Source: Anaerolineae bacterium
Lineage (GTDB): Bacteria; Chloroflexota; Anaerolineae; S140-20
DNA: 64,000 nucleotides
Direction of reading: 5' to 3'
Assembly (NCBI GenBank): GCA_027021705.1
Contig: JALUTT010000132.1
Coordinates: 1-64,000 of the forward strand
In this document: piece by piece, positions 25,809 to 64,000 of the stretch
Layout: each line of letters starts with the position of its first letter
How positions within the stretch are numbered: position 1 is the stretch's first letter
Translations under genes and position numbers: made by a program
Notes under the pieces: generated by a model
Database searches by the model: none
Seen by the model: the letters and a program-made list of their open reading frames with translations, nothing else
Told to the model about the DNA's origin: nothing

Positions 25809-27896
25809 ATGAAAGACTCTTTAGAAACCCGCCACATCACGGACGAGTCGCAAGGGGGGACGGCTCCGGCAGAGGGGTTGGAAACCCGACGGATAGGCAG
25901 CGGCTCCGCGCCTGCATCCGACGATAAGTCCACACGGCAGATTGCAGGTCCGCCGGCCACACCCCCGACTACGGCTCCTGCCGCAGAGGCCCCCCGGCCT
26001 ATCACCCCCCCCCCCACCACCACACCAACGGAAGGCACTCTGCCCCGAGGGACCGTGCTTCAGGGCCGTTATCAGATCCTCGGCATCCTGGGTATGGGGG
26101 GGATGAGCTCCGTCTACAAGGCTCGGGATCTCCGCTTCCCCGAGGTGGAGAAGCTCTGCGCCATCAAAGAGATGATCAACCTGGCTCCCGACCCCCAGAT
26201 CCGGGCCACGATGATCCGCAACTTCGAGCGGGAGGCCAACATCCTGGCGACCCTCAACCACCCCGCTGTGCCCAAGGTGTACGACTACTTTACCGAGGGA
26301 GATCGCAGCTACCTGGTGCTGGAGTTCATTGAGGGGCAGGACCTGGAGGAGGTGCTCTCGGAGGTTCCCGAGGGGGAGTTCCTGCCCGAAAAGCAAGTGC
26401 TGGAGTGGGCGATTCAGCTCTGCGATGTCCTGATCTACCTGCACGGCCACAAGCCTCAGCCCATTGTCTTCCGCGACCTCAAACCGTCCAACATTATGCT
26501 GGACAGCCACGGGCGGATCCGGCTCATTGACTTTGGCATCGCCAAGGTCTTCCAGAGTGGCCAGAAGGGGACGATGATCGGCACCGAGGGGTACTCGCCC
26601 CCGGAGCAGTATCGGGGCAGTGCGGAGCCCCGGGGGGACATCTATGCCCTAGGTGCGACGCTGCACCATCTTCTGACCAAGCAGGATCCCCGTTTGGAAC
26701 CTCCCTTCTCCTTCCAAGAGCGCCCGGTCCGCCAGGCCAACCCATCGGTCTCGCCCGAGTTCGAGGCGGTGATCATGAAAGCCCTGGAGTACGATGCGGA
26801 GAAGCGGTATGGTTCCGCTGAGGAGATGAAGCACGCCCTGCTTGGTGTCGGGCGACGGATCGGGTATCGCCGTCCCGGGGCCGGTCCGGCGGCGGGTGTG
26901 GTGCTGACCGGCGAGACCGATCTGGAGGCCAGCGAGACGATGGCCCTCTGGCGGTTTGCCTGTGAGGATGAGGTCCGTTCCTCGCCCACGGTGGCGGATG
27001 GCATCCTCTACATCGGTTCTTACGATCACAACCTCTACGCTCTGGACGCTGAGACCGGCGAGTTTCTCTGGAAGTATGCTACAGAAGGTGGCATCGCCTC
27101 CTCACCCTACGTAAGCGAGGGGAAGGTGCTGGTGGGGTCTCAGGATCGGGTGCTTTACGCGATTCACGCGCGCACGGGCCGCATCGAGTGGACTTGTCCG
27201 ACCCAAGGGCGGATCTACTCCTCGCCCCGCGTCGAGTTCAATCACGTCTTCTTCGGCTCCGATGACCACCATATGTACGCGGCGAGCCTCCAGACCGGAC
27301 GGGTCGCCTGGAAGGTGGATATGGGAGCTCCCATTCGCTCTTCGGCGGCCATTGCAGAAGGCCAACTCTTCTTCGGCTGTGAGGATGGCTCCGTTGCCTC
27401 ACTGGACATCCGGGGGGAGATGCGCTGGCGTTTCCGGGCCAAGCGGGCGGTCACCTCCTCGCCGGCCCTGGATCAGGAGGAAGGGCTGCTCTTCGTTGGC
27501 TCGATGGACTGGAACATCTATGCGCTGGATGCTCGCTCAGGGTGGGCCGTCTGGCGGTTTCGCACCAGCGGTCCCATCGTCTCCTCACCCGCCATCCATC
27601 AAGGGGTCGTCTACGTTGGGTCGGCCGATGGCCACCTCTACGCCCTCGATGCCCGCAACGGCCGGGTGCTTTGGAAGTATCAGACGGAGGGCCAGGTGAC
27701 CTCGTCGCCGGCTTACTACAACGGCGCGGTCTACTTCGGCGGTGTGGATGGGTGTATCTACAGTCTGGATGCTGAGACGGGAGACCTGCGCTGGCGGGTG
27801 AAGACGGGAGGGCCGGTGACCTCATCCCCCTGCGTTGTCAACGAGGTCGTCTACATCGGCTCTACCGACCGCTATGTCTACGCCCTCCCTGCCTGA
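25809..27896 (+). CDS. Hanks-type Ser/Thr kinase with C-terminal PQQ-like beta-propeller
   Basis: LGMGGMSSVY, AIKE, FRDLKPSN, IDFG and GTEGYSPPE, then about 8 SSP...YALDA..G..W repeats. No TM segment seen. Confidence 0.96.
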   Translation: MKDSLETRHITDESQGGTAPAEGLETRRIGSGSAPASDDKSTRQIAGPPATPPTTAPAAEAPRPITPPPTTTPTEGTLPRGTVLQGRYQILGILGMGGMSSVYKARDLRFPEVEKLCAIKEMINLAPDPQIRATMIRNFEREANILATLNHPAVPKVYDYFTEGDRSYLVLEFIEGQDLEEVLSEVPEGEFLPEKQVLEWAIQLCDVLIYLHGHKPQPIVFRDLKPSNIMLDSHGRIRLIDFGIAKVFQSGQKGTMIGTEGYSPPEQYRGSAEPRGDIYALGATLHHLLTKQDPRLEPPFSFQERPVRQANPSVSPEFEAVIMKALEYDAEKRYGSAEEMKHALLGVGRRIGYRRPGAGPAAGVVLTGETDLEASETMALWRFACEDEVRSSPTVADGILYIGSYDHNLYALDAETGEFLWKYATEGGIASSPYVSEGKVLVGSQDRVLYAIHARTGRIEWTCPTQGRIYSSPRVEFNHVFFGSDDHHMYAASLQTGRVAWKVDMGAPIRSSAAIAEGQLFFGCEDGSVASLDIRGEMRWRFRAKRAVTSSPALDQEEGLLFVGSMDWNIYALDARSGWAVWRFRTSGPIVSSPAIHQGVVYVGSADGHLYALDARNGRVLWKYQTEGQVTSSPAYYNGAVYFGGVDGCIYSLDAETGDLRWRVKTGGPVTSSPCVVNEVVYIGSTDRYVYALPA

Positions 27897-27989
27897 ACGC
27901 GGCGACGGGAGCCGCCGACAGAGGCGTGGGAATCTCCCAGCAGAGTCCGGCATTGCCGGACGACGGCTGACTGCCCGAGGGGATAGAGC

Positions 27990-28934
27990 ATGGGTTTTTT
28001 AGACCGATTGCGCAGGAAGCGCCCGTCCAACGATAAGGTCCGGGCGCAGGAAGAGGTCTCAGAACGGGGGGCACCGTCCAGTGATGCCCTCGCAGGCGCT
28101 GAGGTGCAGCCTTCGGCAGGGCCGCAGGAGGTGGAAAAGGCGTCGTCCGTGATGCGTGTGGGGCGGGCCTCGGACATTGGGCAGGTGCGCACGACCAACC
28201 AGGATGCCCTGGTCACCTTTGTGGCCGAGTACATCGGCGATCACGTGGACGATGCCGGGATGCTCAGCCGGGGGCCTTTTGGCTTCTTCATCGTTGCGGA
28301 TGGGATGGGGGGGCACCAGGCCGGGGAGGTGGCCAGTTCCCTGGCTGCCCGCGTCGTTGCCCACCAGGTCATCGAGACGATCTATCTGCCCTATTTGATG
28401 GGCGAAGGGCCGGAAGCCTTCCAGGATCCCCTCACCGATCTGCTGGGGCGGGCGGTCTCGACGGCCAACCAGGCTGTCCATCAACAAGTGCCCGGGGGCG
28501 GCACGACGCTCACCTGTGCGCTGGTGCTGGGTCATCGGGTCTACATCGCCCACGTGGGGGACAGCCGCGCCTACCTGGTGACAGACCGGCTGCGTCAGTT
28601 GACCCAGGACCACTCTTTCGTGGGACGGTTGGTGGAGCTGGGGGAGCTGTCGCCGGATGAGGCGGCTGTTCATCCCCAGCGCAATGTGCTGTACCGGGCT
28701 GTGGGCCAAGGCGACCACCTGGATGTGGACACCTATTCCCAACTTTTACCGCCGGCCAGTCGGTTGCTTCTGTGCAGTGATGGCTTGTGGGGACACGTGT
28801 CGGAGGAGGAGATCGGCGCGATCATCGCCTCGACGCCCAACCCTCAGAAAGCCTGTGAGCGGTTAATCGAGGCGGCCAACGCGGCCGGCGGTTCGGACAA
28901 CATCACCGTCGTACTGATCGAGATCCCCGACTGA
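27990..28934 (+). CDS. PP2C-family Ser/Thr phosphatase
   Basis: [28 protein letters not shown] and GGSDNIT. Confidence 0.96.
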
Positions 28935-29001
28935 TGCCAGACAGCCGCCTCGCGCCGTCGGGGGAGCCGGTACCGTTGAGGCGTCGTCGAAGGAACCGTG
29001 G

Positions 29002-30477
29002 ATGGAGATTGAAAAGGACTACTATGCCATACTGGGGGTCGGGCCGGCGGCTACCGGTGAGGAGATCAAGAAAGCCTTCCGGGCTCTGGCCCGACGTTAC
29101 CATCCCGACGTCAGCGATGCACCCGATGCGGTCGAGAGGTTCCAAGAGATTCAGGAAGCCTACGAGGTCCTGAGCGATGAGGCTCGCCGAAAGGCCTATG
29201 ACAGAGCCCGAGCCGAGGCCGGTCTTTCCGATCAGGCGATCCTGGCCTGGGAACTCACCGTCAGCCGCCAGAGCCTGCCCGCGATACCTGAGGAGCAGAT
29301 TCTCTACCTGATGGTGGAGATCAGCCCGGCGGCGGCGATGGAGGCCAAGCGGCTTCCCCTGAACCTCTGCCTGGTCATTGACCGCAGCACTTCGATGCAG
29401 GGGGAGCGCCTCAACCAGGTGAAGGCGGCAGCTTACCAGATCATCGAGGACCTGCGGGAGAGTGATACCTTCTCGGTGGTCACTTTCAGCGACCGTGCCG
29501 AGGTCGTCCTATCGGGCCTGCGGGGCTCGGACAAGACCCTGGCCCGTGCCCGATTGAACGCCATCCGCGCCAGCGGTGGGACGGAGATCCTCAAGGGGCT
29601 GGAGGCCGGGGTTGAACAGGTGAGGAAGCGCAAACGGCTGCGGGCGGTCAACCACATCATCCTGTTGACCGATGGGCACACCTACGGGGACGAAGAAGCC
29701 TGCTTGGCCCTGGCAGTGGAAGCTCGGAACCAAGGGATCGGCATCAGTGCGATGGGCATCGGCGAGGATTGGAACGACCAGTTCCTAGACCTCCTCGCCA
29801 CCAAGAGCGGGGGCGTTTCTGCGTACGTGGATTCGGCGGCCCAGGTGCGCACCCTGCTGCGCAAGCGGGTGCAAGGGTTGGGAAGCATCTACGCCCAGGA
29901 TATCCAACTCTTGCTTCGCTTTGCGGCCAACGTCCGCCTAGAGAGCGCCTACAAGGTCTCTCCGTACATCATCCGTCTGGAGCCCTCCCAGGACCGAATC
30001 TCCCTGGGACCGCTGGAGGCCACGTCTCCCCTCAGTGCCTTGCTGGAGATCGTCGTCGGCCCCCAGAAGCCAGGCCGGCACCGTCTGATGCAGCTCGAGG
30101 TGACCGGGGATGTGATCGCCATCGGACGACAGGGGGAACGGCTCCGACGTGAGCTGTGGTTTTCCATCACTGAGAACCCTACCGGTGAGGGGGAAGTGCC
30201 GGCGAATCTGGTCAACGCGCTGAACAAGGTGACGATCTACCGGATGCAAGAGCAGGCCTATCAGGCGTTGGAAAGCGGCAATGCGGAGAAGGCCAGCGAG
30301 CAATTGGCTCTGGTCGCCACCCGGTTGCTGGACATTGGTGAACTGGAACTGGCTCAAGCGGCTCGTCTGGAGGCCGGTCGCCTGGCCCGCACGGGCCGCC
30401 TCTCACCTGAAGGTTGGAAGAAGCTCAAGTATGGGACCCGAAGCCTGACAATGGGGCCTGTAGGAGGAGAAGGATGA
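29002..30477 (+). CDS. DnaJ-domain / von Willebrand factor A fusion protein
   Basis: J-domain DYYAILGV...YHPD, vWA MIDAS DRSTS, GGT and LLTDG. Confidence 0.93.
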
Positions 30478-52711: not shown

Positions 52712-53530
52712 CTACTCTGATGGCTGGGAGGGCCGGTCGGGGCGCAGGAAGATGGTCACCTTGCGGCGGTCTCCCTGCCCGATGCTCTCGGTGGTGACCT
52801 GGGGGTGGTCCCGCAGGGCCAGGTGGATGATGCGGCGCTCGGCCGGGGGCATAGGCTCCAGGACGACACGCCGACCGGTGCGCACCACCCGCTCGGCCAT
52901 CCGCTGGGCCAACCGGCGCAGGCTCCGCTCCCGCCGCTGCCGGTATCCCTCCACGTCCACCACCAACGCCACCCGCCGTTCCAGCTCCCGTCCCACGATG
53001 AGGCGGGTGATGTACTGGAGCGCTTGCAGCGTCTCCCCACGCCGGCCGATCAGGCTGCCCAAGTCCTTCCCCCGGACGTTGAGGATAAAGGGCGGAGCCT
53101 CGGCCTCGCCGGCTTCCGGTTCCGGGTAGTGGACCTCGATGCGAGCCCGGATGTCCATCTTCTCCAACAGCTCTTCCAGGACCTGGCGGGCGACTTCTGC
53201 CTCCTGCTCCCGGGAAGGGGCCGGCGCTGGAGGAGGCGGAACGGCGGCTGGGGCAGGTGCTTCCGCCGGGCTTTCGGGTTCCTCTGGAGGCTCTGGGGGG
53301 GGTGGGGGAGGAGCTGGGGGATGATAGGTGAGACGGACACGAGCGGGGCGGGCGCCGATGCCCAGCAATCCTCGGCTTCCTCTGTCCAGGATCTCGACCT
53401 CGACCTCATCGCGCCGACGGCCCAAGCGAGCCAGGCCGGCCTCGATGGCTTCCTCTACCGTTGGACCAAGGCTCTCAACCGTCTGTGCAGAGCCATCCGG
53501 GTTGCTTACCGTTTGCTCCATAGAGACCAT
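52712..53530 (-). CDS. jag: Jag/EloR (KhpB) RNA-binding protein
   Basis: Jag_N (TVEEAIE...GLLGIG), KH (LIGRRGETL) and R3H (ERRIIH). Confidence 0.95.
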   Translation of the reverse strand: MVSMEQTVSNPDGSAQTVESLGPTVEEAIEAGLARLGRRRDEVEVEILDRGSRGLLGIGARPARVRLTYHPPAPPPPPPEPPEEPESPAEAPAPAAVPPPPAPAPSREQEAEVARQVLEELLEKMDIRARIEVHYPEPEAGEAEAPPFILNVRGKDLGSLIGRRGETLQALQYITRLIVGRELERRVALVVDVEGYRQRRERSLRRLAQRMAERVVRTGRRVVLEPMPPAERRIIHLALRDHPQVTTESIGQGDRRKVTIFLRPDRPSQPSE

Positions 53531-53585
53531 CCACCTGTGTTCCGTGCTTCACGCATCACGTCTCACGTGATGCTGTGCGTTCTAT

Positions 53586-54368
53586 CTACCGACTCTTCTT
53601 CTTGCGGGATGACCGGGCGGGCTTCTTCCCCTTTGCTTGCTTGGCCGGGGCGGGTTGAGGAGCGGGGGCGGGCTGCTTGCGACCGATCAGATAGTACTGG
53701 ACGATCCCCACCAAGTTGGAGATGATGAAGTAGATGGAGAGCCCCGACGAAAACTGCATGGCGAAGAAGCCGAACATCAGAGGCATCATCACCTGCATGG
53801 ATTGGGTCATGCTGGCCGACTGGGGGTCGGTGGCCGGTGGCGTCATCAGCTTCTGCTGGGCCCAAGTGGTGATAACGACCAGGAGGGGCAGGATGTAAAG
53901 GGGATCGGGCCGGCCCAGGTCGAGCCAGAGGAACGATTGGTCCAGGGGCAGCAGGCGGGAGAGGGTGGCCGCGTTGCCGTAGATGTGGCGGGAGAGGTCC
54001 AGAAGCTGCAATGGGGTGGTGCCCAGGACGCGGATGATGGCTTGGTAGAGGCCGAGCATGATGGGGAATTGAAGGAGGGTGGGCAGACACCCGCCCAGGG
54101 GGTTCACCCCATGCTCCTTGTAGAGCTTCATCTGCTCCTGAGCCAGCCGTTCCCGGTCCTTCCCATACTTCTTCTGGAGCTCCTGAAGCTTGGGCTGCAA
54201 CGCCTGCATCGCCTGGGCCGACTGTTGCTGGCGCAGCGTCAGCGGGAGCAGGATGAGCCGGGTCAGGATGGTGAAGATGGTGATGCTCAGCCAGAAGCTC
54301 CTCCCCATCAGCCCATACAGGAAGAGGAGGGCGTTGATCATCGGGTCAAGAATCAGCAGGTCCCACAT
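53586..54368 (-). CDS. yidC: Membrane protein insertase YidC (short form)
   Basis: MQALQPKL, NPLGGCLP.LLQFPI, FLWLDL..PDP and SGLSIY. Confidence 0.96.
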   Translation of the reverse strand: MWDLLILDPMINALLFLYGLMGRSFWLSITIFTILTRLILLPLTLRQQQSAQAMQALQPKLQELQKKYGKDRERLAQEQMKLYKEHGVNPLGGCLPTLLQFPIMLGLYQAIIRVLGTTPLQLLDLSRHIYGNAATLSRLLPLDQSFLWLDLGRPDPLYILPLLVVITTWAQQKLMTPPATDPQSASMTQSMQVMMPLMFGFFAMQFSSGLSIYFIISNLVGIVQYYLIGRKQPAPAPQPAPAKQAKGKKPARSSRKKKSR

Positions 54369-54371
54369 CGT

Positions 54372-55469
54372 TCACTTCTTCTCCGTTGGCGGCGGAAAAC
54401 GCCAGAGCGGTTGGCCGTTTTCGGCCTTCAGAGCGACCAACTTGCTTTCACTGCGCAGGAGGGAAACCAACAGGATGTCTTGGTGTCGAAGGATGGGGGT
54501 GAGGACCTGCCCCTCCAGCTTGATCCGCCACTGCTCCGTGCCCGTGGCCGGATCTAGAGCCAGAACGGTACCGTCCTCGTTCCCCACGTAGAGCACGTTG
54601 TCGGTCAGGGTGGGTGTGGCCCGTATTCCCAATTCCCCTGTGCTGATGCGCCAGATCTCGCGCCCGTCTTCCGGGGCGACGGCGTAGAGGTTCCCCCCCA
54701 GGTCGCCGAAGTAGATGGCCTCTTCGGTCGCCAGGGCCCCCCCCCAGACCCAGTTGTCCACCTCGATGCTCCACCGTTCTTCACCCGTTTCCACGCTGAT
54801 GGCGTAGAGCCGGTTGTCGAAGGAGCCGATGTAGAGGGTGTCACCCAGGAGGGCCGGTGTCCCGGCCATTGCACCCCCCGCCTCGAACTGCCAGACCAGG
54901 TCGCCCTGGGCTGCGTCCAAGGCGTAGAGGTAGTGGTCGGTGGAGGCTACGTAGACCCGGCCATCGGCGAGCAGGGGGGTAGCCCAGATGCGCTGGCTGG
55001 TGGAAAAGCGCCATAGCTCCTGCCCCTCCGGCGAGATGGCGTAGAGGTCACCGTCGGAGCTCCCGATGTAGAGGTTCCCGGCTTCGTCCACGACTCCCCC
55101 TTCGACGAAGCCGCCGTCCACCTTCAGCTGCCACTGTTCCTGACCGCTCTCCGCATCCAGGGCGTAGATGGTGTTGTCGTTGAAGCCGCCGACCACGACC
55201 AGACTGTCCAGAAAGGCCGGTGTCGTGTAGAAAGGACCGATGTTGCGATCGGGTTCTGGGGGGAAGGCCCACCGTTGCGTTCCGGTGGCGATCTCCACCG
55301 CGTAGACCTGCTCGTTGCCGGCCAGGTAGACGAGATCATCGCGGGTGGTCAGGCCAAACCAACTGCTGGCTTGTGCACCTCCACCGGCACAGCCGGTCAG
55401 GACAGAGGCGAGGATGAGGAGGAAAAACAGGCCCCAGAACCTCCATGGCAGGTATTTCCGTAGAGCCAC
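54372..55469 (-). CDS. PQQ-like beta-propeller lipoprotein (BamB-like fold)
   Basis: Lipobox LTGC, then about 8 repeats of LYA...G.E.W. Confidence 0.9.
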   Translation of the reverse strand: MALRKYLPWRFWGLFFLLILASVLTGCAGGGAQASSWFGLTTRDDLVYLAGNEQVYAVEIATGTQRWAFPPEPDRNIGPFYTTPAFLDSLVVVGGFNDNTIYALDAESGQEQWQLKVDGGFVEGGVVDEAGNLYIGSSDGDLYAISPEGQELWRFSTSQRIWATPLLADGRVYVASTDHYLYALDAAQGDLVWQFEAGGAMAGTPALLGDTLYIGSFDNRLYAISVETGEERWSIEVDNWVWGGALATEEAIYFGDLGGNLYAVAPEDGREIWRISTGELGIRATPTLTDNVLYVGNEDGTVLALDPATGTEQWRIKLEGQVLTPILRHQDILLVSLLRSESKLVALKAENGQPLWRFPPPTEKK

Positions 55470-55500
55470 CGATGTACTCCGCCGAGAACGATGTTGCGTC

Positions 55501-55622
55501 GTATCTATTCAGCCTACCCTCCCGCAGGTCACCGGTCGAGGGCGCTTTCAGCCCCGATGGGCTGTTTGAAGCGCGGTTTCGCGTCGGAAACGCGCCTAAC
55601 CTGCGGGAGGGTGAACAGTTAC
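55501..55622 (+). mobile_element. 122-bp MITE (type B) with 8-bp target duplication
   Basis: Ends GTATCTATTCAG / GTGAACAGTTAC. GTTGCGTC is duplicated at 55493-55500 and 55623-55630. Confidence 0.92.
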
Positions 55623-55629
55623 GTTGCGT

Positions 55630-55839
55630 CTAGGGAACCGGGTCGTAACCCCCCGGATGGAACGGGTGACAGCGGCTGATCCGCTTGACGCCCAGCCAGC
55701 CGCCCTTCAGCAGGCCGTACTTGTCAATGGCCTGGTAGGTGTACTCCGAGCAGGAGGGGTAGAAGCGGCAGGTGGGGGGGAGGAGCCGCGAGATGGTCCG
55801 CTGATAGAGACGGATGAAGAACAGGGCCACGCGCTTCAT
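55630..55839 (-). CDS. yidD: Membrane protein insertion efficiency factor YidD
   Basis: YQRTIS...[10 protein letters not shown]...[14 protein letters not shown]. Confidence 0.96.
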
Positions 55840-56237
55840 TCCTGTTTCTGAACCTCCAGATCCACCGAATCCTTGGCCGCTCCGGGCTTTTCCCCCGGGG
55901 AATGGAGCAGACCAGCCTGGCGCAAAAGTTGCTCCAGCGCCTGATCCACTTGGTGAAAGGTGCACCCCACGATGGCCGGACGGGCGATGAAGACCAGGTC
56001 CCAACCGGGTTGGATGTGATCATAGCGCCGTCGGGCGGCCTCCCGGAGGAGCCGTTTGGCCCGGTTGCGCCGCACAGCCTTGCCCACCCGCCGGCTCGCC
56101 GTGACCCCGATGCGCGTGTAGGGCAGGTCGTTGGGAGCAGCCCCCAGGATCACCAGGGGGTGAAACCAGGAACGACCTTCCTGACGCACCCGCTGGAAGT
56201 CCTGTTTCCTGCGCAGTCGGTAGGGGCGCTTCAGCAA
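55836..56237 (-). CDS. rnpA: Ribonuclease P protein component
   Basis: RLRRKQDF and [28 protein letters not shown] start inferred just after rpmH. Confidence 0.94.
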
Positions 56238-56239
56238 GG

Positions 56240-56413
56240 TCAGGCTTTCCAGTTGATCCGTTTGACGTGCCCCAGGCGAGGGGTAAGCCGGTAGCGCCCT
56301 TTCAGGCGGCGGGCCTTCAGGACCCGTCGTCCCCCTTTGGTCCGCATCCGAGCGCGAAATCCGTGGACTCGTAACCGTTTTCGCTTCTTGGGTTGGTAGG
56401 TTCGTTTGGGCAT
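56240..56413 (-). CDS. rpmH: 50S ribosomal protein L34 (57 aa, absent from the ORF track)
   Basis: Manual translation: [57 protein letters not shown]. Confidence 0.96.
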
Positions 56414-56464
56414 CTGAACACCTCGTCGTTGGTTGATCGGTCAGGCGGCCGGCCCGGCGTGGGA

Positions 56465-57214
56465 TCACCCGTTCTCGGGTTCGACGCCTAGGGCACGCAG
56501 TTGGGCGGCCAGCCGCTCGGCTCGCTGTCGTTCCCGCTCAGCCCGCTGGCGCTCTTGCTCGGCCCGCTCCGCCCCCGTGGGGATGACCTGACCCTCCAGG
56601 TCACACCAGCGCAACCAGAGAGCCTCGACACCCTCGTACTCGCCCTGCCAGAGCGTCAGGCCCAGCCCTACTCCCGGCAGTTCCTTCTCGGAGATCACCT
56701 TGGGCGGCTTGAGGGGCGACAGCTCGTGCACCCGCAGCAGGCCGATCCCCAGGAACCCGCCGGGATCGAAGACGACGTAATAGGGCACCCCAATGCGGGC
56801 GTAGGTCTCCAGCTTGCGGCCTAGCTCCTCCCCCTCCCGATTGGAGACGATCTCGATCACCACATCGGGGGGCTTGCCGTACAGCCAGATGAAGTAAGAG
56901 CGGTGCTCCTTGGGCCAGAGATCCGACGGAGCCTGCACGTCCAGACTCAAGAGCACGTCAGGCACGATGGGCGGCTTGTAAAGGGCGTAGAAGAGGCCCA
57001 CGTTGGCCATCACCAGGAAGGGACGACCCTCCCCCGGCCCTGCCCAGGAGCTGTACAGCGGTTCGGTTAGCAAGCGCTGTTGCTTCTCGGAGAAGAGGTT
57101 GTCCACAGGTGTGTCATCCTCGGTCACGAGATGGTCTACAGGCAGATGCTCGATGATGGGCAGGGCCTCAGGGGCTTCTTCGGCCTTCTCTACAACAGGA
57201 GACGTGGTACTCAT
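56465..57214 (-). CDS. Uma2 family endonuclease
   Basis: TEDDTPVDN, VPDVLL, PDVVIEIVS, YYVVFDP, WLRW and a C-terminal RAERLAAQLRALG coil. Confidence 0.9.
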   Translation of the reverse strand: MSTTSPVVEKAEEAPEALPIIEHLPVDHLVTEDDTPVDNLFSEKQQRLLTEPLYSSWAGPGEGRPFLVMANVGLFYALYKPPIVPDVLLSLDVQAPSDLWPKEHRSYFIWLYGKPPDVVIEIVSNREGEELGRKLETYARIGVPYYVVFDPGGFLGIGLLRVHELSPLKPPKVISEKELPGVGLGLTLWQGEYEGVEALWLRWCDLEGQVIPTGAERAEQERQRAERERQRAERLAAQLRALGVEPENG

Positions 57215-57264
57215 CCCTTCACCTCACTTTCCTCGGCCCCCGGTGAACCCCGTAGCAGAGGCAG

Positions 57265-57293
57265 ATTATACCCTGTAGGAGAGCCGTCGTCAA
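57265..57293 (-). promoter_or_regulatory. Sigma70 promoter upstream of the Uma2 gene and rpmH operon
   Basis: TTGACG-17 bp-TATAAT on the minus strand. Confidence 0.75.
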
Positions 57294-59644
57294 GAAAGGA
57301 TCGTGTCACCGATGGTCATCCCTCGTTCGGCCAGCAGCCGGCGCAGCGCCTCCAGGTCGTCCTGGGTGACCAGGGCCAGGGCCTGCTCCGGAGGTGGGTT
57401 GAAACGACGCAGGAAGGGACCGACCTCCGGGTCCTGGAGGAGCTCCTGGAGCGCGGCCTCATCCCGTAGCTGGAGCAGGGTAAGGGACTGCAAAGCGGCG
57501 TCGCCGTAGTGATGAGCCCAGGCTTTGATGCGCACCGTCAGCCGGAAGGGCAGCGGCCCCTGGTGCAGGGTGGACAGTTCCTGGAGGATCGAGGGGGCGT
57601 CCAGCCCCTGTTCCAGGGCCTTCTGGACCGAGGCCGGCGTGATCCGGTAGTGATGGTCGTCCACCCGCTCGGCGAAGCGGTCCAGCCGCCGGGCCAGGTA
57701 GATGCTGGGCGTACGGTGGACCAGGCGCAGGTTTCCCTCCTCGTCGGCGACCAGGCAGTTTTCTTCCCTCCCCGCCTGCCGGGTCACAGCGGGGAGGACG
57801 CCCGCGGTGCCGAAGGCTTCGATGAGCGCGTCCACCTGCTGAGGATTGACCAGGGCAGCGGTCGGAGCCGGTCGGTGGCGTAACAACTCGGTCAGGTTGG
57901 GATGGCGGGAGAGTTGGTCCAGGACCTCAGGATCGTGGGCGTGCACCAGGGCGACGCGCCGGTAGATGGTGATCCGCTCGTGGAGGGCCTGCCACTCCTG
58001 GAGGGAGACGACCACGTTCTGGGGAAGCTTCCCCCCGGAGATCTCCTCCAGATAGGCGATGATCCGCTGGGCCGACCAACCCCGCTGTTGGCCCCGGTAG
58101 ACCGACTCCCGGCTCATCCGGTACTCGATGGCCCGCTCGGCGCTGATCCGATCGGCGAAGATGTCCAGCGTCGCCAGCGTCTGGTCGGAGACCGGGTCCA
58201 TCGCCAGGATCTGGAAGTTGGGCTGGACGATGATCCGCCCCTGCTTCTCCGTGGGGATCTCGACCGGCGGTCCCAGCCCCAGCAACCAGGCCCCCAGCGG
58301 GGTCAGCCGGTAGGCGATGGGGGTCTGCTCGGCGTCCCCGTAGCCCAAGTCCACCAATCCCAGCCAGTGTAGAGGGCCGGTGATCACATTGGTGATGAAG
58401 GGCGCTTCTACCAGGTCCCATCCTTCCTCTTCGGAGGTGACACCCTGGAAGGTCCAGCCCAGGGGATTGCGATGGGCCGCATAAGGGGTCTTGTAGAGCG
58501 GCCCGTAGTAGTAGTACGAGTAGTAGTAACCGGTGGATCGGGCTCGGTAGTCGCGGGGGAGCAGGAACTCATACTCCTCAACCCGGATGGTCTCGACCAG
58601 GTTGTTCAAGGGGACCCAGCCCTGAGCGGAGAGTTTCTGGAGGAACCGGACCACCTGGCGTCGCGCCTGGACAATCGGCTTGGGCGTGGGATAGGGGGGG
58701 ATGCCGCCGCCCGTGGTGATGGAGATGTGGGGCAGGGGCTGATCGTAGAGTTCGTTCCAGAAGTCCCCATCGAGCCACGCCTCGAAGCTGCGGCGCACCC
58801 GCTGGGCAGGATCAGCGGCCAGGAAGTGGGAAGCATCGTTGGCGGTCAGGTCCCGCTGCCCGGTGAGGGAGAGGAGTCCCAGGCCCATCAGCAGGCGGCG
58901 CAGGAAGAGCAGGTAGGGAAGGTCTCGCTCGCTCTGCCCCCTTTGCAGCGTGATGGGCGTCAGCAGGTTGCCCGCCAGGTCCCGGAGCGTCCGTTTGTAG
59001 ACCTCCTGCTTCACGGTGACCCGGACCTGGTGATCCCGGACGTAGCTCCAGTACAGGTAGAGATCGCGCTGCAAGGTGCGGGCCGAGGCCGACTGGACCC
59101 GGTCAACGCGGACCGGACGTTGGAGCAGATCGGGGTCGGGGCTGGGCAGGTATCGGCGGATGGTGGGAGGGATGTATAGGGAAGGGCCGGGCTTCAGAGA
59201 ACGCTTGAGGACGGTGCGGGTGTATCCCAGGTCACTGACCAGTCCCTCGGCGCTGAAGACCAGGCCGTGGAGGGTCAGCCGGGCTACCACCGACTCGAAG
59301 TCGGTGGCGTTGGGGTCCTGCGGATTCATCTTCTTCTTGCTCCCGGTGGGAGAGACGATGCCGTGGCTCACCAGCAACCGCCGGAAGGCACTCGTGTTGG
59401 CCCTCCCTCCCCGCAGCAACAGGACATCCAGGACCTTGCGCTCGACGGGGGAGAGCCGCTCCAGGGCCTCCTGCACGCGCTTCTTGGTGAAGAGCCTCTG
59501 CTCCAACTCTCTCACCAGTTCGCGCTTGTACAGACGCTTCCCCTTTTTGTTCTCCGTGGGGATCCGGTTGAAGCGGGCAATGTCCAGCAGCGTGTGGTAG
59601 TTGTAGGCCTCCAGCAGTTGGCGCGGGGTCTCGCTCATCGTCAT
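57290..59644 (-). CDS. XPB-associated protein with two XPB-N-terminal-like (Helicase_C_3-type) domains
   Basis: IIVQPNFQIL...YRMSRESV...LPQNV and RFAE...YRITPASV...LP..L segments resemble the N-terminus of the neighbouring XPB. Confidence 0.8.
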   Translation of the reverse strand: MTMSETPRQLLEAYNYHTLLDIARFNRIPTENKKGKRLYKRELVRELEQRLFTKKRVQEALERLSPVERKVLDVLLLRGGRANTSAFRRLLVSHGIVSPTGSKKKMNPQDPNATDFESVVARLTLHGLVFSAEGLVSDLGYTRTVLKRSLKPGPSLYIPPTIRRYLPSPDPDLLQRPVRVDRVQSASARTLQRDLYLYWSYVRDHQVRVTVKQEVYKRTLRDLAGNLLTPITLQRGQSERDLPYLLFLRRLLMGLGLLSLTGQRDLTANDASHFLAADPAQRVRRSFEAWLDGDFWNELYDQPLPHISITTGGGIPPYPTPKPIVQARRQVVRFLQKLSAQGWVPLNNLVETIRVEEYEFLLPRDYRARSTGYYYSYYYYGPLYKTPYAAHRNPLGWTFQGVTSEEEGWDLVEAPFITNVITGPLHWLGLVDLGYGDAEQTPIAYRLTPLGAWLLGLGPPVEIPTEKQGRIIVQPNFQILAMDPVSDQTLATLDIFADRISAERAIEYRMSRESVYRGQQRGWSAQRIIAYLEEISGGKLPQNVVVSLQEWQALHERITIYRRVALVHAHDPEVLDQLSRHPNLTELLRHRPAPTAALVNPQQVDALIEAFGTAGVLPAVTRQAGREENCLVADEEGNLRLVHRTPSIYLARRLDRFAERVDDHHYRITPASVQKALEQGLDAPSILQELSTLHQGPLPFRLTVRIKAWAHHYGDAALQSLTLLQLRDEAALQELLQDPEVGPFLRRFNPPPEQALALVTQDDLEALRRLLAERGMTIGDTILS

Positions 59645-61896
59645 CCGTCGTCGGCCTCCTCAAAGCTCTCGGCCACGCGAGGGGTGTATCCTTTCTCCTG
59701 CAACTCTCGGACCAGATCGTCCACCGCATCGGGCTCGATGGCCACCAGCCGGGGGGAGAACTGGTAGATGATGTGCTGGGCCAGGGAGGTGGCGGCCACC
59801 AGTTCGCGGATGGCAAAATCATCGCTGAGTTCGAGGATGGTCAGGTTGGGATAGAGGTGAACCAGGCCGAAGTTCTCCCACCAGCGGGTCAACATCTCCC
59901 GCAGCCCCTCGGGCAGAGGGGCCTGGCTTCCCTTCTCCAGCAGATCGAGGATCTCTTCCAAGGTGTGGCCGGCTTCGAAAGCCTGCCTGGCTCCCTCGGC
60001 GGTCAGGCGATAGTGAAGGCGACCGGACCCTGCCTCGACCAACGTCCCCATCGTTGCCAGAAGGTCCAGGAGCCGGATGTCACTGCGCCCGGGATCGAGG
60101 GTGACCTGGCCATCCTCGGTGAGGACCAGCGTCGGCCCCTCGGGTTTTTTCTCCAGGGCAGGGCTGGGACGCCGGCCCAGCAGGAATGCGCCGAATTCGG
60201 TGATCTGGAAGGCAACGATGCCCCGCTTGTCATAGCCCAGGGAGACGATGCCCAGCCAGTTCAACGGCCCTTCCAACATCGCGGCGATGAAGGCCCCGTA
60301 GGTATTGGACCAGTCTCGGCGGTTGTCAGGGGCATACCGCTTGTGCGTGATCCGAGAGGCCAGCCACCAGGCGTTGGGATCGCCGTAGCGGTGGAGATAG
60401 TGGTCATCCAGCTTGCGGACGAAGGCTAAGAGGTGATCGAGGCCGTACCAGGTCTCCTCCGGCAGCCGCCGTAGAAGGGAGAGCAAGAAGAAGCGCACAT
60501 CGGCCAACTCCTGGAGCAAATGGGTGAGGTGGAAGTGGGAGTAGCGGCCAGACCGACGGAGCTCCAGGTGGTTCAAGTGGCGCAGGACCAGGTAGATTTC
60601 GCTCCAATGGGTCAGCTCCTCCCAGGCTACTGTGAGCAGGTAGGTCTGCTCCGAGGGACTCAGGCTCAGGAACCGCTCCATCACCTGGGAGCTGGTCTCG
60701 ATGGGTTGCCCCGGCTGGAGGGTGATGAAGCCAAGGGCGGACATCAGGGCAATGATGAACTCTATCGCCTCCACCGAGGCACCGGTCGCCCGCGCCAATG
60801 CCTGCATCTCCTCGTCCTGCAGCGGATAGGGCGGGGGGGGAACCGTAAAACTCCGCTGGCTCGCGTGCCAGGAAGCCATACCAGGAGCACGGGACAGGGC
60901 TTTCACCTCTGAGCGAAGGTTGAGCCAGCCCTGCAGGGCGGGAACCTGGTCCTCGATGGGCAGGCGTTCCATCGGGGGACGGGCGACCAGTTGTCGCTCC
61001 CGAACGAGTCGCCAGACGAGGTATAGGGTGCGGGCCAGGGCGAAGGGAGGGGAGTGCTCGATTCGCAGCCCTTTGAGCGAGCCGGTGTAGGGACGAAGCA
61101 GATGGGGTGTGGGGGGCAGGAAGGCGACGACCGTGGGCAGGACAACGTAGTAGCGATCCCCGCCCTCCTTGTGGGAAAGCACCAGCCCCCACGTCTGAAG
61201 GGTCTGGAGGTGGTGACCGGCACCCGCAGCGATGAGGGGCTCACCTATCTGCTCCAACAGCGCGGCCACCTCTTCCTCCGAGTAGTCCGCTACATCACTC
61301 ACAAGAGCCAGGATGTCCAGTACTTTGCGAGGGGCGTCCTCCAACTGCTCGTAGGTCTGGACGATGACCTGGGGACGGCTCAGGTGCTCGGCCAGGGCCT
61401 CCACCAAGGGGGCTTTGCGACGGCCTTTGATGGGAAGCCCGTGACGGCGGGCGATGGCGCGCAGTTGTTGGATGGTCTGAGCCTCAAAGGCTTCCCGCAA
61501 AGTGTCCTGCAGCCTCTGCTCGGTGGCCTCAGGGGAGAGGAACGAGATGGAAAGGGAGGAAGACATCGCCCTCTCGGGTTCCATAGGGATGAAAGTTCGG
61601 GGCTCTCGGATCCACGCGATGAGCAGGGCGCCCATATGGGCGCATAAGCCGTACTGGCCCTCTGGGCAGCTACACATGACGTAGAGGCGCTCGTCCCCCA
61701 CCCAGGCCTCTGAGGTGACAGGCGTGCCGGTCTCATCGTCCTCGATGATGCCGGTGATCCTGTCCTCGGTCCGGTAGCGTGCCGCCACGGACCCCCTCTG
61801 GTAAAGTTGGAGCGCCTGACGGTAGAGGCGCTCCCCTAGCGTCTCTCGTATCCTTGCCTCAGTCAAGGCGGACAGCAGGAAGTGGGTGTCGTTCAT
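59641..61896 (-). CDS. SWIM zinc finger + XPB-N-terminal-like domain protein
   Basis: CSC...CAH SWIM motif, HeH-like TIQQLRAIARRHGL...KAPLV, and C-terminal YRLTAEG...LEEIL...PLPE. Confidence 0.8.
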   Translation of the reverse strand: MNDTHFLLSALTEARIRETLGERLYRQALQLYQRGSVAARYRTEDRITGIIEDDETGTPVTSEAWVGDERLYVMCSCPEGQYGLCAHMGALLIAWIREPRTFIPMEPERAMSSSLSISFLSPEATEQRLQDTLREAFEAQTIQQLRAIARRHGLPIKGRRKAPLVEALAEHLSRPQVIVQTYEQLEDAPRKVLDILALVSDVADYSEEEVAALLEQIGEPLIAAGAGHHLQTLQTWGLVLSHKEGGDRYYVVLPTVVAFLPPTPHLLRPYTGSLKGLRIEHSPPFALARTLYLVWRLVRERQLVARPPMERLPIEDQVPALQGWLNLRSEVKALSRAPGMASWHASQRSFTVPPPPYPLQDEEMQALARATGASVEAIEFIIALMSALGFITLQPGQPIETSSQVMERFLSLSPSEQTYLLTVAWEELTHWSEIYLVLRHLNHLELRRSGRYSHFHLTHLLQELADVRFFLLSLLRRLPEETWYGLDHLLAFVRKLDDHYLHRYGDPNAWWLASRITHKRYAPDNRRDWSNTYGAFIAAMLEGPLNWLGIVSLGYDKRGIVAFQITEFGAFLLGRRPSPALEKKPEGPTLVLTEDGQVTLDPGRSDIRLLDLLATMGTLVEAGSGRLHYRLTAEGARQAFEAGHTLEEILDLLEKGSQAPLPEGLREMLTRWWENFGLVHLYPNLTILELSDDFAIRELVAATSLAQHIIYQFSPRLVAIEPDAVDDLVRELQEKGYTPRVAESFEEADDG

Positions 61897-63716
61897 TGGG
61901 GCTTCCTATCTCCCCGGGGTAGGGCCTGTCGCTGACCGGCGGGGGCCGGCAGCGCCACCGGTTCCGCCGGCAGAGCAGGTTCCTTTTCTACCATCTCGCC
62001 GGCCAGCACCGCCGGTTTGTAGTCGGCAACCTGGTAGTCGTAGAGAATGGTGTAGTGGTAGCCCTGTTCCGTCAGGAAGAGTTGGCGGTTGGCCCCGAAG
62101 GTCTGGTCTTTGGTGTCCTTGCTAACGATGGTGTAGAAGTGAGCCAACAGGCCGTTCTTCTTGGGCCGGAGGATGCGTCCCAGCCGTTGGGCCTCCTCCT
62201 GGCGGGAGCCGAAGGTGCCGGAGACCTGGATCATCACGTTGGCATCGGGGAGGTCCACGGCGAAGTTGCCCACCTTGGAGACGACCAGCACCCGGACCTC
62301 ACCCTCACGGAACTTCTGGAAGAGCTCCTGGCGCTTGCGCACCGGCGTCTTGCCGGTGATGAGGGGGAAGTCGTAGCGCTGGGCAATCTCCCGGAGCTGG
62401 TCCAGGTACATCCCGATGATGAGGATCTGGTCGTCGGGGTGCTTCTTCAGGAGTTGGTCCAGCACCTCCAGCTTGGCCGGGTTCTCGGCAGCGACCCGGT
62501 ACTTGTCCCGTTCGTCGGATACGGCGTAGAGGAGCCTCTCCTCGTCGGGCAGGGTGACGCGGATCTCGCAGCACTCGGCCGTCGCGATCCAGCCCTGCTT
62601 CTCCAGCACCTTCCAGGGGACGTCGTACTTCTTGGGGCCGATGAGGGAGAAGACGTCGGTCTCCCGGCCATCCTCGCGCACCAGGGTAGCGGTGAGGCCC
62701 AGCCGACGCCGGGCCTGGAGCTCCGCCGTGATGCGGAAGACGGGGGCCGGCAGCAGGTGGACCTCGTCGTAGATAATGAGGCCCCAGTTCTCCTCGTTGA
62801 AGATGGCAAAATGGGGGAACTCCGGCTCTCCCGGCTTGCGCTTCCGCCGCCGATAGGTGACGGTCTGATAGGTGGTGATGGTGATGGGGCGGATCTGCTT
62901 GCGCAGACCGGTGTACTCGCCGATCTGCTCCTCCGTCAGCGTCGTCTTGTCCAGCAGCTCTTCGATCCACTGCCGGGCGGCGACGGTGCTGGGCGTGAGG
63001 ATGAGGGTGGCGGTCTGCAGGTCCTCGATCACCTTCATCCCCACCATCGTCTTGCCCGCCCCGCAGGGCAGGACGATGACCCCGCTGCCGCCCTGGGGGC
63101 CACCGCCGGCGTAGAAGACCTCGGCCGCTTCCAACTGGTAGGGGCGCAGGCGGAAGGGCTTGCCGGAGCGGGTGATGGGGCGCAGGTGGATCTCCAGAGG
63201 TGCGCCGGTGATGTAGCCGGCCAGGTCCTCGGCCGGGTAGCCGATCTCCACCAGCGCCTGCTTGATGTGGCCCCGGCGGGCCGGGTCCACCAACAGCGTA
63301 TAGGGGTTGGGTTGGCCCAGGATGTAGGGCTGGAGCTTCTTGTGGCGGGCCAACTCGGTGATCAGAGCGATGTCGTCGGAGACGAGCTGCAACCGCCCCT
63401 CGTCATCCCGCACCAGCTTGACCCGCCCGTAGCGGGAGATGTAGTCGGCGATGTCCACCCGCACGTTGTCGGGGATGGGGTACTTGGCGTAGCGGTCCAG
63501 CCCCTCCAGGATCTCCTCGGCGGTCATGCCGGCCGAGGCAGCGTTCCAGAGAGAGAGCGGGGTGATCCGGTAGGTGTGCACGTACTCCGGCGACTTCTCC
63601 AGCTCCGCAAAGCGGGCCAGGATGTCCCGGGCGGCCTCATAGAAGGGGTTATCTACTTCCAACAGGACGGTCTTATCCGACTGGACGATCAGCGGATTCT
63701 GGGGGTTGTAGGACAT
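61893..63716 (-). CDS. xpb: XPB/Ssl2 (ERCC3)-family SF2 DNA helicase
   Basis: PLIVQSDKTVLLE, LRPYQ, LPCGAGKT, DEVH, GLTAT and QRLGRILRPK. Confidence 0.95.
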   Translation of the reverse strand: MSYNPQNPLIVQSDKTVLLEVDNPFYEAARDILARFAELEKSPEYVHTYRITPLSLWNAASAGMTAEEILEGLDRYAKYPIPDNVRVDIADYISRYGRVKLVRDDEGRLQLVSDDIALITELARHKKLQPYILGQPNPYTLLVDPARRGHIKQALVEIGYPAEDLAGYITGAPLEIHLRPITRSGKPFRLRPYQLEAAEVFYAGGGPQGGSGVIVLPCGAGKTMVGMKVIEDLQTATLILTPSTVAARQWIEELLDKTTLTEEQIGEYTGLRKQIRPITITTYQTVTYRRRKRKPGEPEFPHFAIFNEENWGLIIYDEVHLLPAPVFRITAELQARRRLGLTATLVREDGRETDVFSLIGPKKYDVPWKVLEKQGWIATAECCEIRVTLPDEERLLYAVSDERDKYRVAAENPAKLEVLDQLLKKHPDDQILIIGMYLDQLREIAQRYDFPLITGKTPVRKRQELFQKFREGEVRVLVVSKVGNFAVDLPDANVMIQVSGTFGSRQEEAQRLGRILRPKKNGLLAHFYTIVSKDTKDQTFGANRQLFLTEQGYHYTILYDYQVADYKPAVLAGEMVEKEPALPAEPVALPAPAGQRQALPRGDRKPQ

Positions 63717-63768
63717 CTCGCTTCAATACTCCTGGCTCACGAAGGTCTCTGGCAACAGGCATCACGGT

Positions 63769-63797
63769 ATTGTACCTTAAGGAGAAGGGTTTGTCAA
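63769..63797 (-). promoter_or_regulatory. Sigma70 promoter of the XPB operon
   Basis: TTGACA-17 bp-TACAAT on the minus strand. Confidence 0.8.
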
Positions 63798-63811
63798 AAT
63801 TTCGGCTCCCT

Positions 63812-63908
63812 TCCCTCCCGCAGGTCCTCCCCACGGCCTGAAGCGCCTCGTAGGTCGCCTCCGGCAAGCCGTAGCTATCGCCGGGCACCGCGTGACCTGC
63901 GGGAGGGT
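63812..63908. repeat. Type-A palindromic cassette
   Basis: CCCTCCCGCAGGT ... ACCTGCGGGAGGGT, closely similar to the reverse complement of 10375-10470. Confidence 0.88.
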
Positions 63909-63914
63909 GGCATC

Positions 63915-63998
63915 TCAGGGGGGCGTGGGGGTGCTGGGGGGCTGCTGGGCGACGAAGACCATCTGCCAGGAGGCGAAGGGCGGGGTATCGGCGGGGCA
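63915..63998 (-). CDS. Probable 3' end of a gene entering from beyond the window
   Basis: Open frame CPADTPPFASWQMVFVAQQPPSTPTPP* with host-like codons. Confidence 0.4.
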   Translation of the reverse strand, partial: CPADTPPFASWQMVFVAQQPPSTPTPP

Positions 63999-64000
63999 AC

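Follow-up and report, generated by a model that had tools for sequence, protein, structure and literature searches.

Two paralogous partners with predicted XPB-type docking domains in a conserved three-gene XPB operon of Chloroflexota

In TFIIH, XPB's N-terminal domain (NTD) and the clutch of p52 share a common fold and form a pseudo-symmetric dimer via their beta-sheets; p52 recruits XPB and stimulates its ATPase, while a second pseudo-dimer, composed of the C-terminal domain of p52 and p8, cradles RecA2 (PMC6422496). In Archaea, the gene of the partner protein Bax1 adjoins the XPB gene, and Bax1 binds XPB and modulates its ATPase (PMC7293015); the XPB of A. fulgidus is devoid of the N-terminal domain (PMC3353954). 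As to Bacteria, the function of XPB is described as elusive in a 2026 review (PMC13024598). We found no study of bacterial XPB partners in the literature (subscription journals and preprint supplements were outside the coverage, and a prior description is possible), nor, to judge by the papers listed, any functional study of Rv0862c. Here we describe a locus from a 64,000-nucleotide stretch of DNA of an Anaerolineae bacterium (assembly GCA_027021705.1, contig JALUTT010000132.1, positions 1 to 64,000; hereafter "the window"), in which xpb forms an operon with two genes, here termed MID and LAST, whose products appear to carry additional copies of the XPB NTD.

This locus had been portrayed, in a prediction made from the letters of the DNA, as a three-gene operon that encodes a TFIIH-like DNA-opening complex of XPB and two p52-like partners. 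According to our sequence comparisons that interpretation is partly supported, as its homology, paralogy and synteny hold. With a probability of roughly 0.58, we consider the operon to encode a chromosomal XPB translocase of double-stranded DNA together with two paralogous, non-catalytic, DNA-anchoring adaptors, which would be docked via clutch-type domains and would most likely serve housekeeping genome maintenance.

Layout of the operon and its XPB

The operon comprises three open reading frames (ORFs) of 607, 751 and 784 aa on the minus strand, transcribed in the order xpb (61893..63716), which encodes the superfamily 2 (SF2) DNA translocase/helicase XPB, MID (59641..61896), which encodes a partner of the architecture SWIM-SAP-core-Helicase_C_3, and LAST (57290..59644), which encodes a partner with a SAP-like N-terminus, a core and two Helicase_C_3 domains. 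The junction sequences, CAATGAAC for xpb/MID and GGATGACG for MID/LAST, show the downstream ATG overlapping the upstream TGA, hence both junctions are 4-nt ATGA stop/start overlaps (61893..61896 and 59641..59644, minus strand). A sigma-70-type promoter, TTGACA-17-TACAAT, which agrees with the consensus in 11 of 12 positions, is located upstream of xpb (63769..63797, minus strand). The view of the locus as an operon of three genes with one near-consensus promoter and 4-bp overlaps is thus borne out.

Two promoter-like sites were observed in the region 55500-64000, versus 0.7 +/- 0.7 obtained from shuffled sequences. The second, likewise near-consensus site (TTGACG-17-TATAAT, 57265-57293, minus strand) overlaps the stop codon of LAST and precedes the next gene, a member of the Uma2 family, and the operon is therefore bounded there. 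A sequence scan of the operon region revealed no terminator-like site on the minus strand, and an Rfam scan of 55000-64000 gave no match at E<=0.1. From its sequence, the xpb promoter appears strong and constitutive-looking. The motif GAAC-N4-GTTC, which we take to be the LexA/Cheo-type box, has 0 matches in the window versus 0.67 expected, and the difference is uninformative. In the relatives, a promoter agreeing in at least 10 of 12 positions precedes xpb in 15 of 33 loci, a count that lacks a shuffle control and from which 25 further loci had been dropped by the motif anchor, and which is not used here.

XPB meets the NCBIfam equivalog NF045503 (repair_heli_XPB) with 870.9 bits against a cut-off of 610, its residues 8-557 spanning positions 1-547 of the 548 positions of the profile, and it contains the Pfam domains Helicase_C_3 (residues 9-132, E 1.5e-37), ResIII and ERCC3_RAD25_C. 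The first of these is the NTD (63321..63692, minus strand), which has an isoelectric point (pI) of 5.0 and a mean pairwise identity of 0.64 among the orthologues. Across 26 orthologues there is no variation in the SF2 motifs G219-A-G-K-T223 (Walker A) and D317-E-V-H320 (DEVH) or in R347-E-D349, the RED motif specific to XPB, and all three were found in the XPB of each of the 59 related loci that include at least 4.5 kb of DNA upstream of LAST. On the strength of these profile and motif matches, the orthologue is intact and lacks none of the helicase motifs. Its identity amounts to 62-78% across the phylum and to about 55% with the XPB of other phyla.

The paralogous partners and their clutch-type domains

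MID and LAST are related to each other already at the level of BLASTP (E 1e-17), and the comparison of their family alignments with hhalign yields a probability of 100 and an E-value of 1.1e-52, with MID 129-751 collinear with LAST 3-622. The claim that the two partners are paralogous is confirmed by this alignment. The collinearity implies that MID consists of a SWIM-bearing N-terminus followed by a common body, composed of SAP, a winged-helix-like region, a middle region and Helicase_C_3, and LAST comprises the same body and a second Helicase_C_3 domain. The N-terminus of LAST has no Pfam SAP match and aligns to the SAP region of MID with a probability of 97.9 (E 3.8e-13). Behind the SAP motif, profile comparisons reveal a weak ArsR-type winged-helix signal. 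The SAP/winged-helix-like N-terminal segments are basic (pI 10.1-11.3), and the Helicase_C_3 domains together with the XPB NTD are acidic (pI 4.4-6.2). The best conserved segments of both partners are the Helicase_C_3 domains.

The Helicase_C_3 module occurs in four copies, one in XPB, one in MID and two in LAST, as had been noticed from the sequence. The MID copy, following that in XPB as copy 2 (residues 590-745; 59662..60129, minus strand), matches Pfam in residues 590-707 with E 1.5e-14 and 54.5 bits against the gathering cut-off of 34.2, and the domain is matched by all 47 members of the MID family. No other segment of MID is conserved as well as this copy (0.36), which is also the only part present in every size variant of the protein. 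LAST exhibits two stretches (E 9.1e-41, 139.2 bits against the same cut-off), and all 21 members of its family match the domain. The first (copy 3, residues 471-591; 57872..58234, minus strand) is the best Pfam stretch and overlaps a weak match to the Tfb2/p52 clutch. The second (copy 4, residues 628-777; 57314..57763, minus strand) was delineated by alignment to the XPB NTD: XPB 6-121 aligns to LAST 628-738 with E 3e-7, the comparison with the XPB NTD profile gives a probability of 97.6, and the domain is present in 59 of 59 orthologues. All six profile-profile pairs among the four copies have probabilities of 97.5-99.3 and E-values from 7e-12 to 2e-20. The partner copies share 26-28% identity with the XPB copy, with Y49, R50, G63 and P82 among the 10 invariant columns, and the common Y-R-[IL]-T motif aligns with E115-Y-K-L-T119 of human XPB, where T119 has been discussed as conserved in XPB and the p52 clutch (PMC6422496). 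In a domain tree, the copy of MID (MID-C) groups with the second copy of LAST (LAST-C2; Shimodaira-Hasegawa-like approximate likelihood ratio test, SH-aLRT, 83), and approximately unbiased tests do not reject alternatives (p 0.41 and 0.37).

Against the PDB, the family profiles match the NTD of human XPB (E 3e-5), the NTD of yeast Rad25 (E 1.7e-3) and the Tfb2/p52 clutch (E 0.017-0.14), and searches of the PDB with single sequences returned chance-level matches only. From these profile comparisons, the module at the C-termini of the partners is homologous to the XPB NTD and to the p52/Tfb2 clutch. The description of the partners as "p52-like" stands for this domain and falls for the proteins as a whole: LAST remains below the cut-offs of both p52/Tfb2 families (25 bits versus 34.5 for Pfam PF03849, 18 versus 320.7 for TIGR00625), sub-threshold Tfb2 matches were obtained for 10 of the 21 LAST-family members, and MID has no Tfb2 match in the Pfam profile scan. 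The sub-threshold match in LAST extends over residues 445-534, equivalent to profile positions 264-354 of 358 only, i.e. the clutch. Beyond the clutch region we found no Pfam or PDB match in the partners to the C-terminal module of p52 that dimerises with p8/Tfb5; where p52 has the p8-binding module, LAST has its second Helicase_C_3. Judged by these scores, the partners are not members of the p52 family, and the homology is limited to the clutch part.

The SWIM zinc finger claimed for one partner is found in MID, with the core CxCx7CxH (C75, C77, C85, H87; 61636..61674, minus strand) apparent from the family alignment: C75, C85 and H87 do not vary among the 47 members, at least 90% of which also retain C77. 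The conserved Cys/His signature speaks for this assignment, and the Pfam score of the window's protein against it, as SWIM (PF04434) reaches 13.3 bits with the whole protein and 16.6 bits with the segment alone, below the cut-off of 19.6. Nevertheless, 22 of the 47 relatives match the Pfam family at E<=0.01, the best with 6.2e-6, and "SWIM zinc finger family protein" is the name given to one public relative of MID. Of 125 representatives with a length of 700 aa or more, 113 contain the motif, versus 0 of 120 LAST-family proteins. In the related loci it accompanies 34 of 38 long forms of MID, none of the 23 forms of about 600-690 aa, which begin at the SAP motif, and all 7 forms of about 300 aa, which consist of SWIM and Helicase_C_3 only. 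The motif described earlier as HeH-like is a helix-extended-helix element, as was thought, and its identity is that of the SAP DNA-binding motif (PF02037; MID residues 137-172, 61381..61488, minus strand), with 24.6 bits in the full-length protein and 30.4 bits as an isolated segment, against the gathering cut-off of 23.9. This segment has a pI of 11.3 and gives weak Rho_N-type matches as well, with E 0.031 in the window's protein and with matches in 2 of the 47 members of the family.

An exhaustive search of 1.84 billion representatives yielded 1917 relatives of MID at E<=1e-3, or 275 if the threshold is E<=1e-30, and a word-indexed search found 159 relatives of LAST, among which those with a name are annotated as "hypothetical protein" or "helicase-associated domain-containing protein" from Chloroflexota. 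In the family alignment of 47 sequences, the core of MID is nearly devoid of invariant polar columns. Family-profile scans that included the relatives revealed no nuclease family in MID or LAST at E<=0.1 except a chance-level match to ssDNA-exonuc_C (E 0.024), so the reported absence of a nuclease motif was correct for both partners; Pfam/NCBIfam-type scans of the 47 MID-family and 21 LAST-family members gave no match to any other catalytic family.

Conservation in Chloroflexota and partners of XPB in other phyla

The survey of synteny was based on a scan of one genome per species, from which the best 80 of the 131 confirmed loci of LAST relatives were taken. Seventy-nine of the 80 are from Chloroflexota (47 Anaerolineae, 6 Caldilineae, 6 Chloroflexia, 5 Ardenticatenia, 1 Thermoflexia and 14 without class). 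Where the DNA upstream of LAST extends for at least 4.5 kb, which applies to 59 loci, XPB, MID and LAST are arranged in this order and on one strand in 56; in the 21 shorter loci, the trio is found in 10, and a contig end interrupts the other 11. Overall, all three genes are present in 66 of the 80 loci, and 11 of the other 14 are cut by contig ends. The original prediction had staked its case in part on the three genes being kept together, and in these loci they are. The start codon falls within -20 to +30 nt of the upstream stop codon at 42 of 59 XPB/MID junctions and 47 of 59 MID/LAST junctions.

In a quick tree built from 55 rows and 579 columns, the MID sequences make up one clade (SH-aLRT 99) and the LAST sequences another (SH-aLRT 98), and the sub-clades of the two mirror each other; this topology argues for an old duplication followed by co-inheritance. 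The ratios of nonsynonymous to synonymous substitution rates (dN/dS) in 7 locus pairs are 0.03-0.17 for XPB, 0.18-0.45 for MID and 0.10-0.33 for LAST; all three genes are under purifying selection. In Chloroflexota the operon is vertically inherited and chromosomal, and its order and tight spacing have been kept across the phylum. No conserved extra neighbour, be it a fourth gene or a nuclease, was found across the 80 loci, the next real gene cluster being present in only 9 of them; an apparent neighbour cluster from 11 loci was rejected, as it is an antisense ORF of xpb. The 64 flanking proteins that were scanned are heterogeneous, with metabolic, regulatory or unknown functions.

Several loci depart from the common arrangement. 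L064 (9500-12733) and L065 (9473-12659) are second, xpb-less loci in assemblies that also possess a full operon, and they encode a miniature MID of 281-292 aa (SWIM and Helicase_C_3) and another LAST. The main operons of these assemblies (L028 and L038) carry a MID without SWIM, and the finger may be supplied there in trans. A pair of MID-like (679 aa) and LAST-like (802 aa) genes without adjacent xpb is found in L074 (5198-9647) and L077 (1041-5490); upstream of the former lies a MiaB-like radical SAM gene on the opposite strand. In 3 of the 58 loci with enough downstream DNA, LAST is followed immediately, on the same strand, by a fourth gene of about 600 aa with a C-terminal Helicase_C_3 domain (L003:6764-8566, L006:7354-9147 and L053:1085-2881; E 2.5e-10, 5e-8 and 3.8e-12, respectively), which falls into one clade with the sole partner that XPB has in cyanobacteria (SH-aLRT 100). 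Four contigs of metagenome-assembled genomes (L044, L051, L062 and L079) show xpb, and here and there its partner genes too, broken up into several ORFs, probably by assembly frameshifts rather than as pseudogenes. Runs of masked N occur inside xpb and MID of L001, and L029, L049 and L057 are also affected.

Outside Chloroflexota, our sample consists of XPB homologues on records of a plasmid collection, several of them chromids or chromosomes. All 11 records from Actinomycetota, Deinococcota, Bacillota and Cyanobacteriota combine XPB with one large partner of the MID/LAST kind, whose Helicase_C_3 domain is placed at about 60-80% of the protein length. The actinobacterial xpb had been credited with one such neighbour, and exactly one partner within 8 kb was found in 5 of 5 records, adjacent in only 2 of them: it lies immediately upstream in Arthrobacter, is divergent in Actinomyces, is 3.5-3.8 kb upstream in Tsukamurella and Nonomuraea, and is 4.6 kb downstream on the other strand in Nocardia. 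In all three Deinococcus records the order is XPB, an ORF of 99-115 aa, and a partner of 805-815 aa; in the single Paenibacillus record, XPB is followed by a 657-aa partner, and in the two cyanobacterial records a partner of 622 or 624 aa precedes XPB. Neighbours of MID and LAST in the ESM Atlas include Helicase_C_3 clusters, with Planctomycetota, Myxococcota, Bacillota and Deinococcota as the commonest phyla. The occurrence of XPB with a partner across the sampled phyla implies a wide distribution of this module in Bacteria, whereas a fixed pair of paralogues is, in our sample of lineages, the feature of Chloroflexota.

The small Deinococcus ORF (L082:7759-8088, L087:7762-8061, L091:9755-10102) matches only the last ~60 positions of the Helicase_C_3 profile (E ~1e-6 to 1e-7), and the first Helicase_C_3 domain of the large Deinococcus partner matches only positions 5-104. 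From these profile matches, the ORF resembles a fragment that complements the domain, and it recalls a small subunit of the p8 type. Two haloarchaeal plasmids (L092, L093) encode XPB-like "DEAD/DEAH box helicases" with 35% identity to the window's XPB over its residues ~21-30 to 546-552, and in neither of the two records is a Helicase_C_3 or Bax1-like neighbour annotated.

The genomic setting of the operon is an ordinary core chromosome, with rnpA-yidD-yidC-jag, parB, relA/spoT and argS in the window. Immediately downstream of LAST, at a distance of 75 nt, lies the gene for a putative endonuclease of the Uma2 family (56465-57214, minus strand, 249 aa; Pfam Uma2, E 9.4e-13), which is not conserved beside the operon across the 80 related loci. 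The origin-type cluster rnpA-yidD-yidC-jag (52712-56468, minus strand) has a gene for a PQQ/BamB-like beta-propeller (54372-55469) inserted between yidD and yidC, and the longest ORF of its rnpA (210 aa) includes about 78 residues N-terminal to the RNase P domain and is overlapped by the yidD ORF. Further away, at 25809-30474 on the plus strand, there is a run of signalling genes, whose products are a 695-aa fusion of a Ser/Thr protein kinase with a PQQ beta-propeller, a PP2C phosphatase and a DnaJ-VWA protein.

Proposed mechanism, alternatives and relation to known systems

We propose that the four acidic clutch-type domains would pair mutually, as the XPB NTD pairs with the p52 clutch in TFIIH, and that this pairing would tie XPB, MID and LAST into a single complex. 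The adaptors could position or stimulate the ATPase, with their SAP, winged-helix and SWIM elements providing fixed contacts to DNA, and translocation of XPB against these contacts would build torsion, by which the duplex would be twisted and opened. The setting could be the opening of DNA at lesions or the removal of stalled protein-DNA or transcription complexes, with no nuclease built in. As to the pairing itself, rate correlations across 54 loci, controlled for the motor domain of XPB, are 0.61 for the two copies of LAST (LAST-C1/LAST-C2) and 0.32 for XPB NTD/MID-C, compared with 0.12 for the XPB NTD with LAST-C1 and 0.14 with LAST-C2; this provides a lead for the pairs XPB NTD/MID-C and LAST-C1/LAST-C2. 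By analogy, it is tantalizing to consider the system as a minimal bacterial counterpart of the XPB-p52-p8 sub-module of TFIIH, heterotrimeric in Chloroflexota, in which two pseudo-symmetric clutch pairs and DNA-clamping adaptors would open DNA in the manner of a "molecular wrench"; in this full form we regard the idea as possible and on balance doubtful.

A number of observations weigh against such a complex. The contrast between the rate correlations is weak (bootstrap 76% and 96%; the partial-Mantel p-values are all <=0.0015 and hence non-discriminating), so that it serves for ranking only. The number of clutch domains per system varies from two in cyanobacteria through about three elsewhere to four here, and five where the fourth gene is present, therefore a simple rule of "two dimers" is not general. 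In 3 of the 5 actinobacterial records the partner is separated from xpb by 3.5-4.6 kb with other genes between them, which means that operon linkage is not obligatory; pairs of partner genes without adjacent xpb occur in 3 of the 59 loci (L064, L065 and L074); and a search of proteins of 1373-3920 aa detected no fusion of XPB to a partner or of MID to LAST, which is weak evidence in itself.

The cellular role of such a machine is probably in genome maintenance or transcription rescue. A somewhat unlikely variant is that the same complex acts as a transcription-associated remodeller on RNA polymerase, either in the rescue and recycling of stalled or drug-trapped complexes or in promoter opening, the latter being the best understood role of XPB in TFIIH (PMC6422496, PMC13024598). 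In the same direction point the hypersusceptibility to rifampin, an inhibitor of RNA polymerase, that has been reported for both transposon and deletion mutants of ercc3 in Mycobacterium tuberculosis (PMC10534295) and was however not reproduced in a CRISPR interference screen cited there, and the partner gene of Tsukamurella, which abuts a gene for a sigma-70-family factor and is a single case. The strong, constitutive-looking promoter, the LexA-type box not found in the window and the weak Rho_N-type matches of the SAP segment would also agree with a function in transcription. On the other hand, family-profile scans recognised no RNA-polymerase-binding domain in XPB, MID or LAST, and no transcription gene is a conserved neighbour in the 80 loci.

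Quite improbable, in our opinion, is that no joint complex exists and that the partners are independent DNA-binding proteins or regulators, which possess an ancient domain shared with XPB and are merely co-transcribed with it. The xpb-less loci, the distant actinobacterial partners and the lack of fusions mentioned above would all fit this explanation. Against it stand the order and tight spacing kept in 56 of 59 loci, and the domain shared with XPB is the most constrained part of both partners and the only constant part of MID; in TFIIH, moreover, the pair of domains homologous to it has been documented to form an interface between proteins (PMC6422496).

The proposal of an XPB translocase with docked adaptors in housekeeping, i.e. 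in genome maintenance or transcription rescue, is favoured over defence because of the core-chromosome context, the vertical descent, the constitutive-type promoter and the absence of an effector or defence signature. Defence against phages or plasmids, in which the XPB-like helicase would scan foreign DNA with the SWIM/SAP adaptors as sensors, is the least likely of the three roles originally suggested (repair, transcription or defence) and most improbable altogether: partial matches of XPB to the PADLOC helicase models PbeA (E 3.6e-24) and Cas3, limited to the generic helicase core, the second partner-only copies (L064, L065) or extra fourth partner gene of some genomes, the inclusion in the 64 flanking proteins of one restriction endonuclease (L060) as well as a few STAND/TPR proteins, and the location of the module on large plasmids or chromids near transposases and toxin-antitoxin genes in cyanobacteria and Deinococcus are outweighed by the lack of any match of MID or LAST to PADLOC-DB 2.0 or PHROG models, by tblastn searches without a MID or LAST match in 50,697 phage records and without a LAST match in 72,556 plasmid records (where LAST was the sole partner searched), by the absence of an effector (nuclease, NADase or similar) within or beside the operon, by the high identity of XPB within the phylum and to other phyla, by the co-divergence of the partners with their host lineages and by the core-chromosome context of the window.

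Whatever its function, the locus shows that a bacterial XPB is accompanied by proteins with a domain of the p52-clutch/XPB-NTD type, and that in one phylum two paralogues of this sort, of which one bears SWIM, have become fixed in a tight operon. The conservation of the trio and the copies of the putative XPB docking domain in the partners suggest, by analogy, a bacterial counterpart of one part of TFIIH. If the proteins assemble as proposed, the operon would offer a three-protein bacterial model for the recruitment, anchoring and tuning of XPB by adaptors, an approach to the question of how the TFIIH core arose in evolution, and a lead to the function of bacterial XPB in repair or transcription stress. 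If also the heterotrimer with two clutch pairs were true, the clutch interface would be an ancient, pre-eukaryotic invention, and the operon an experimentally simple system to study how XPB is harnessed. If there is no assembly, it would still be a well conserved operon with a striking fourfold domain repeat.

The archaeal XPB-Bax1 system resembles the operon in that XPB is encoded beside a dedicated partner (PMC7293015). Unlike in this helicase-nuclease pair, the partners described here have no match to Bax1 or a nuclease and carry the N-terminal domain of XPB instead. Proteins with SWIM fingers encoded beside SF2/SNF2 ATPases in Bacteria were reportedly noticed by Makarova, Aravind and Koonin in 2002. 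Such pairs likewise combine a CxCxnCxH SWIM finger with an SF2 DNA translocase; however, the ATPase here is XPB instead of SNF2, and the SWIM protein possesses in addition SAP, a large core shared with its paralogue and a clutch domain.

With the XPB(Ssl2)-p52(Tfb2)-p8(Tfb5) part of TFIIH, the operon has in common an XPB orthologue with the same NTD, partners that bear a domain homologous to this NTD and to the p52 clutch, and N-terminal parts of the partners with winged-helix-like segments (the weak ArsR-type match); TFIIH is also the source of the idea that pseudo-symmetric domain pairs may recruit and tune the ATPase (PMC6422496). In contrast to the one p52 with one clutch in TFIIH, three clutch copies are distributed here over two large partners, which are paralogues, SWIM and SAP are added, and the host is bacterial; no p52 C-terminal or p8-type dimerisation module was detected, and the cut-offs of Tfb2 were failed. 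Of the proposed resemblance to TFIIH, only that to the XPB-p52(-p8) sub-module survives, as no genes for XPD, p44, p34, p62 or CAK (Cdk-activating kinase) are linked to the operon.

Close relatives are bacterial XPB proteins (Ercc3, e.g. Rv0861c of M. tuberculosis) with a "helicase-associated domain-containing protein", which belong to the same XPB equivalog and the same partner superfamily. The other bacterial loci have one large partner, often upstream, divergent or kilobases away, to which Deinococcus adds the fragment-like ORF of 99-115 aa, whereas Chloroflexota possess two (rarely three) co-inherited paralogues, one with a SWIM finger, in the fixed order XPB-MID-LAST. The operon of Chloroflexota elaborates on this bacterial pair, XPB plus a helicase-associated domain protein, in a manner specific to the lineage.

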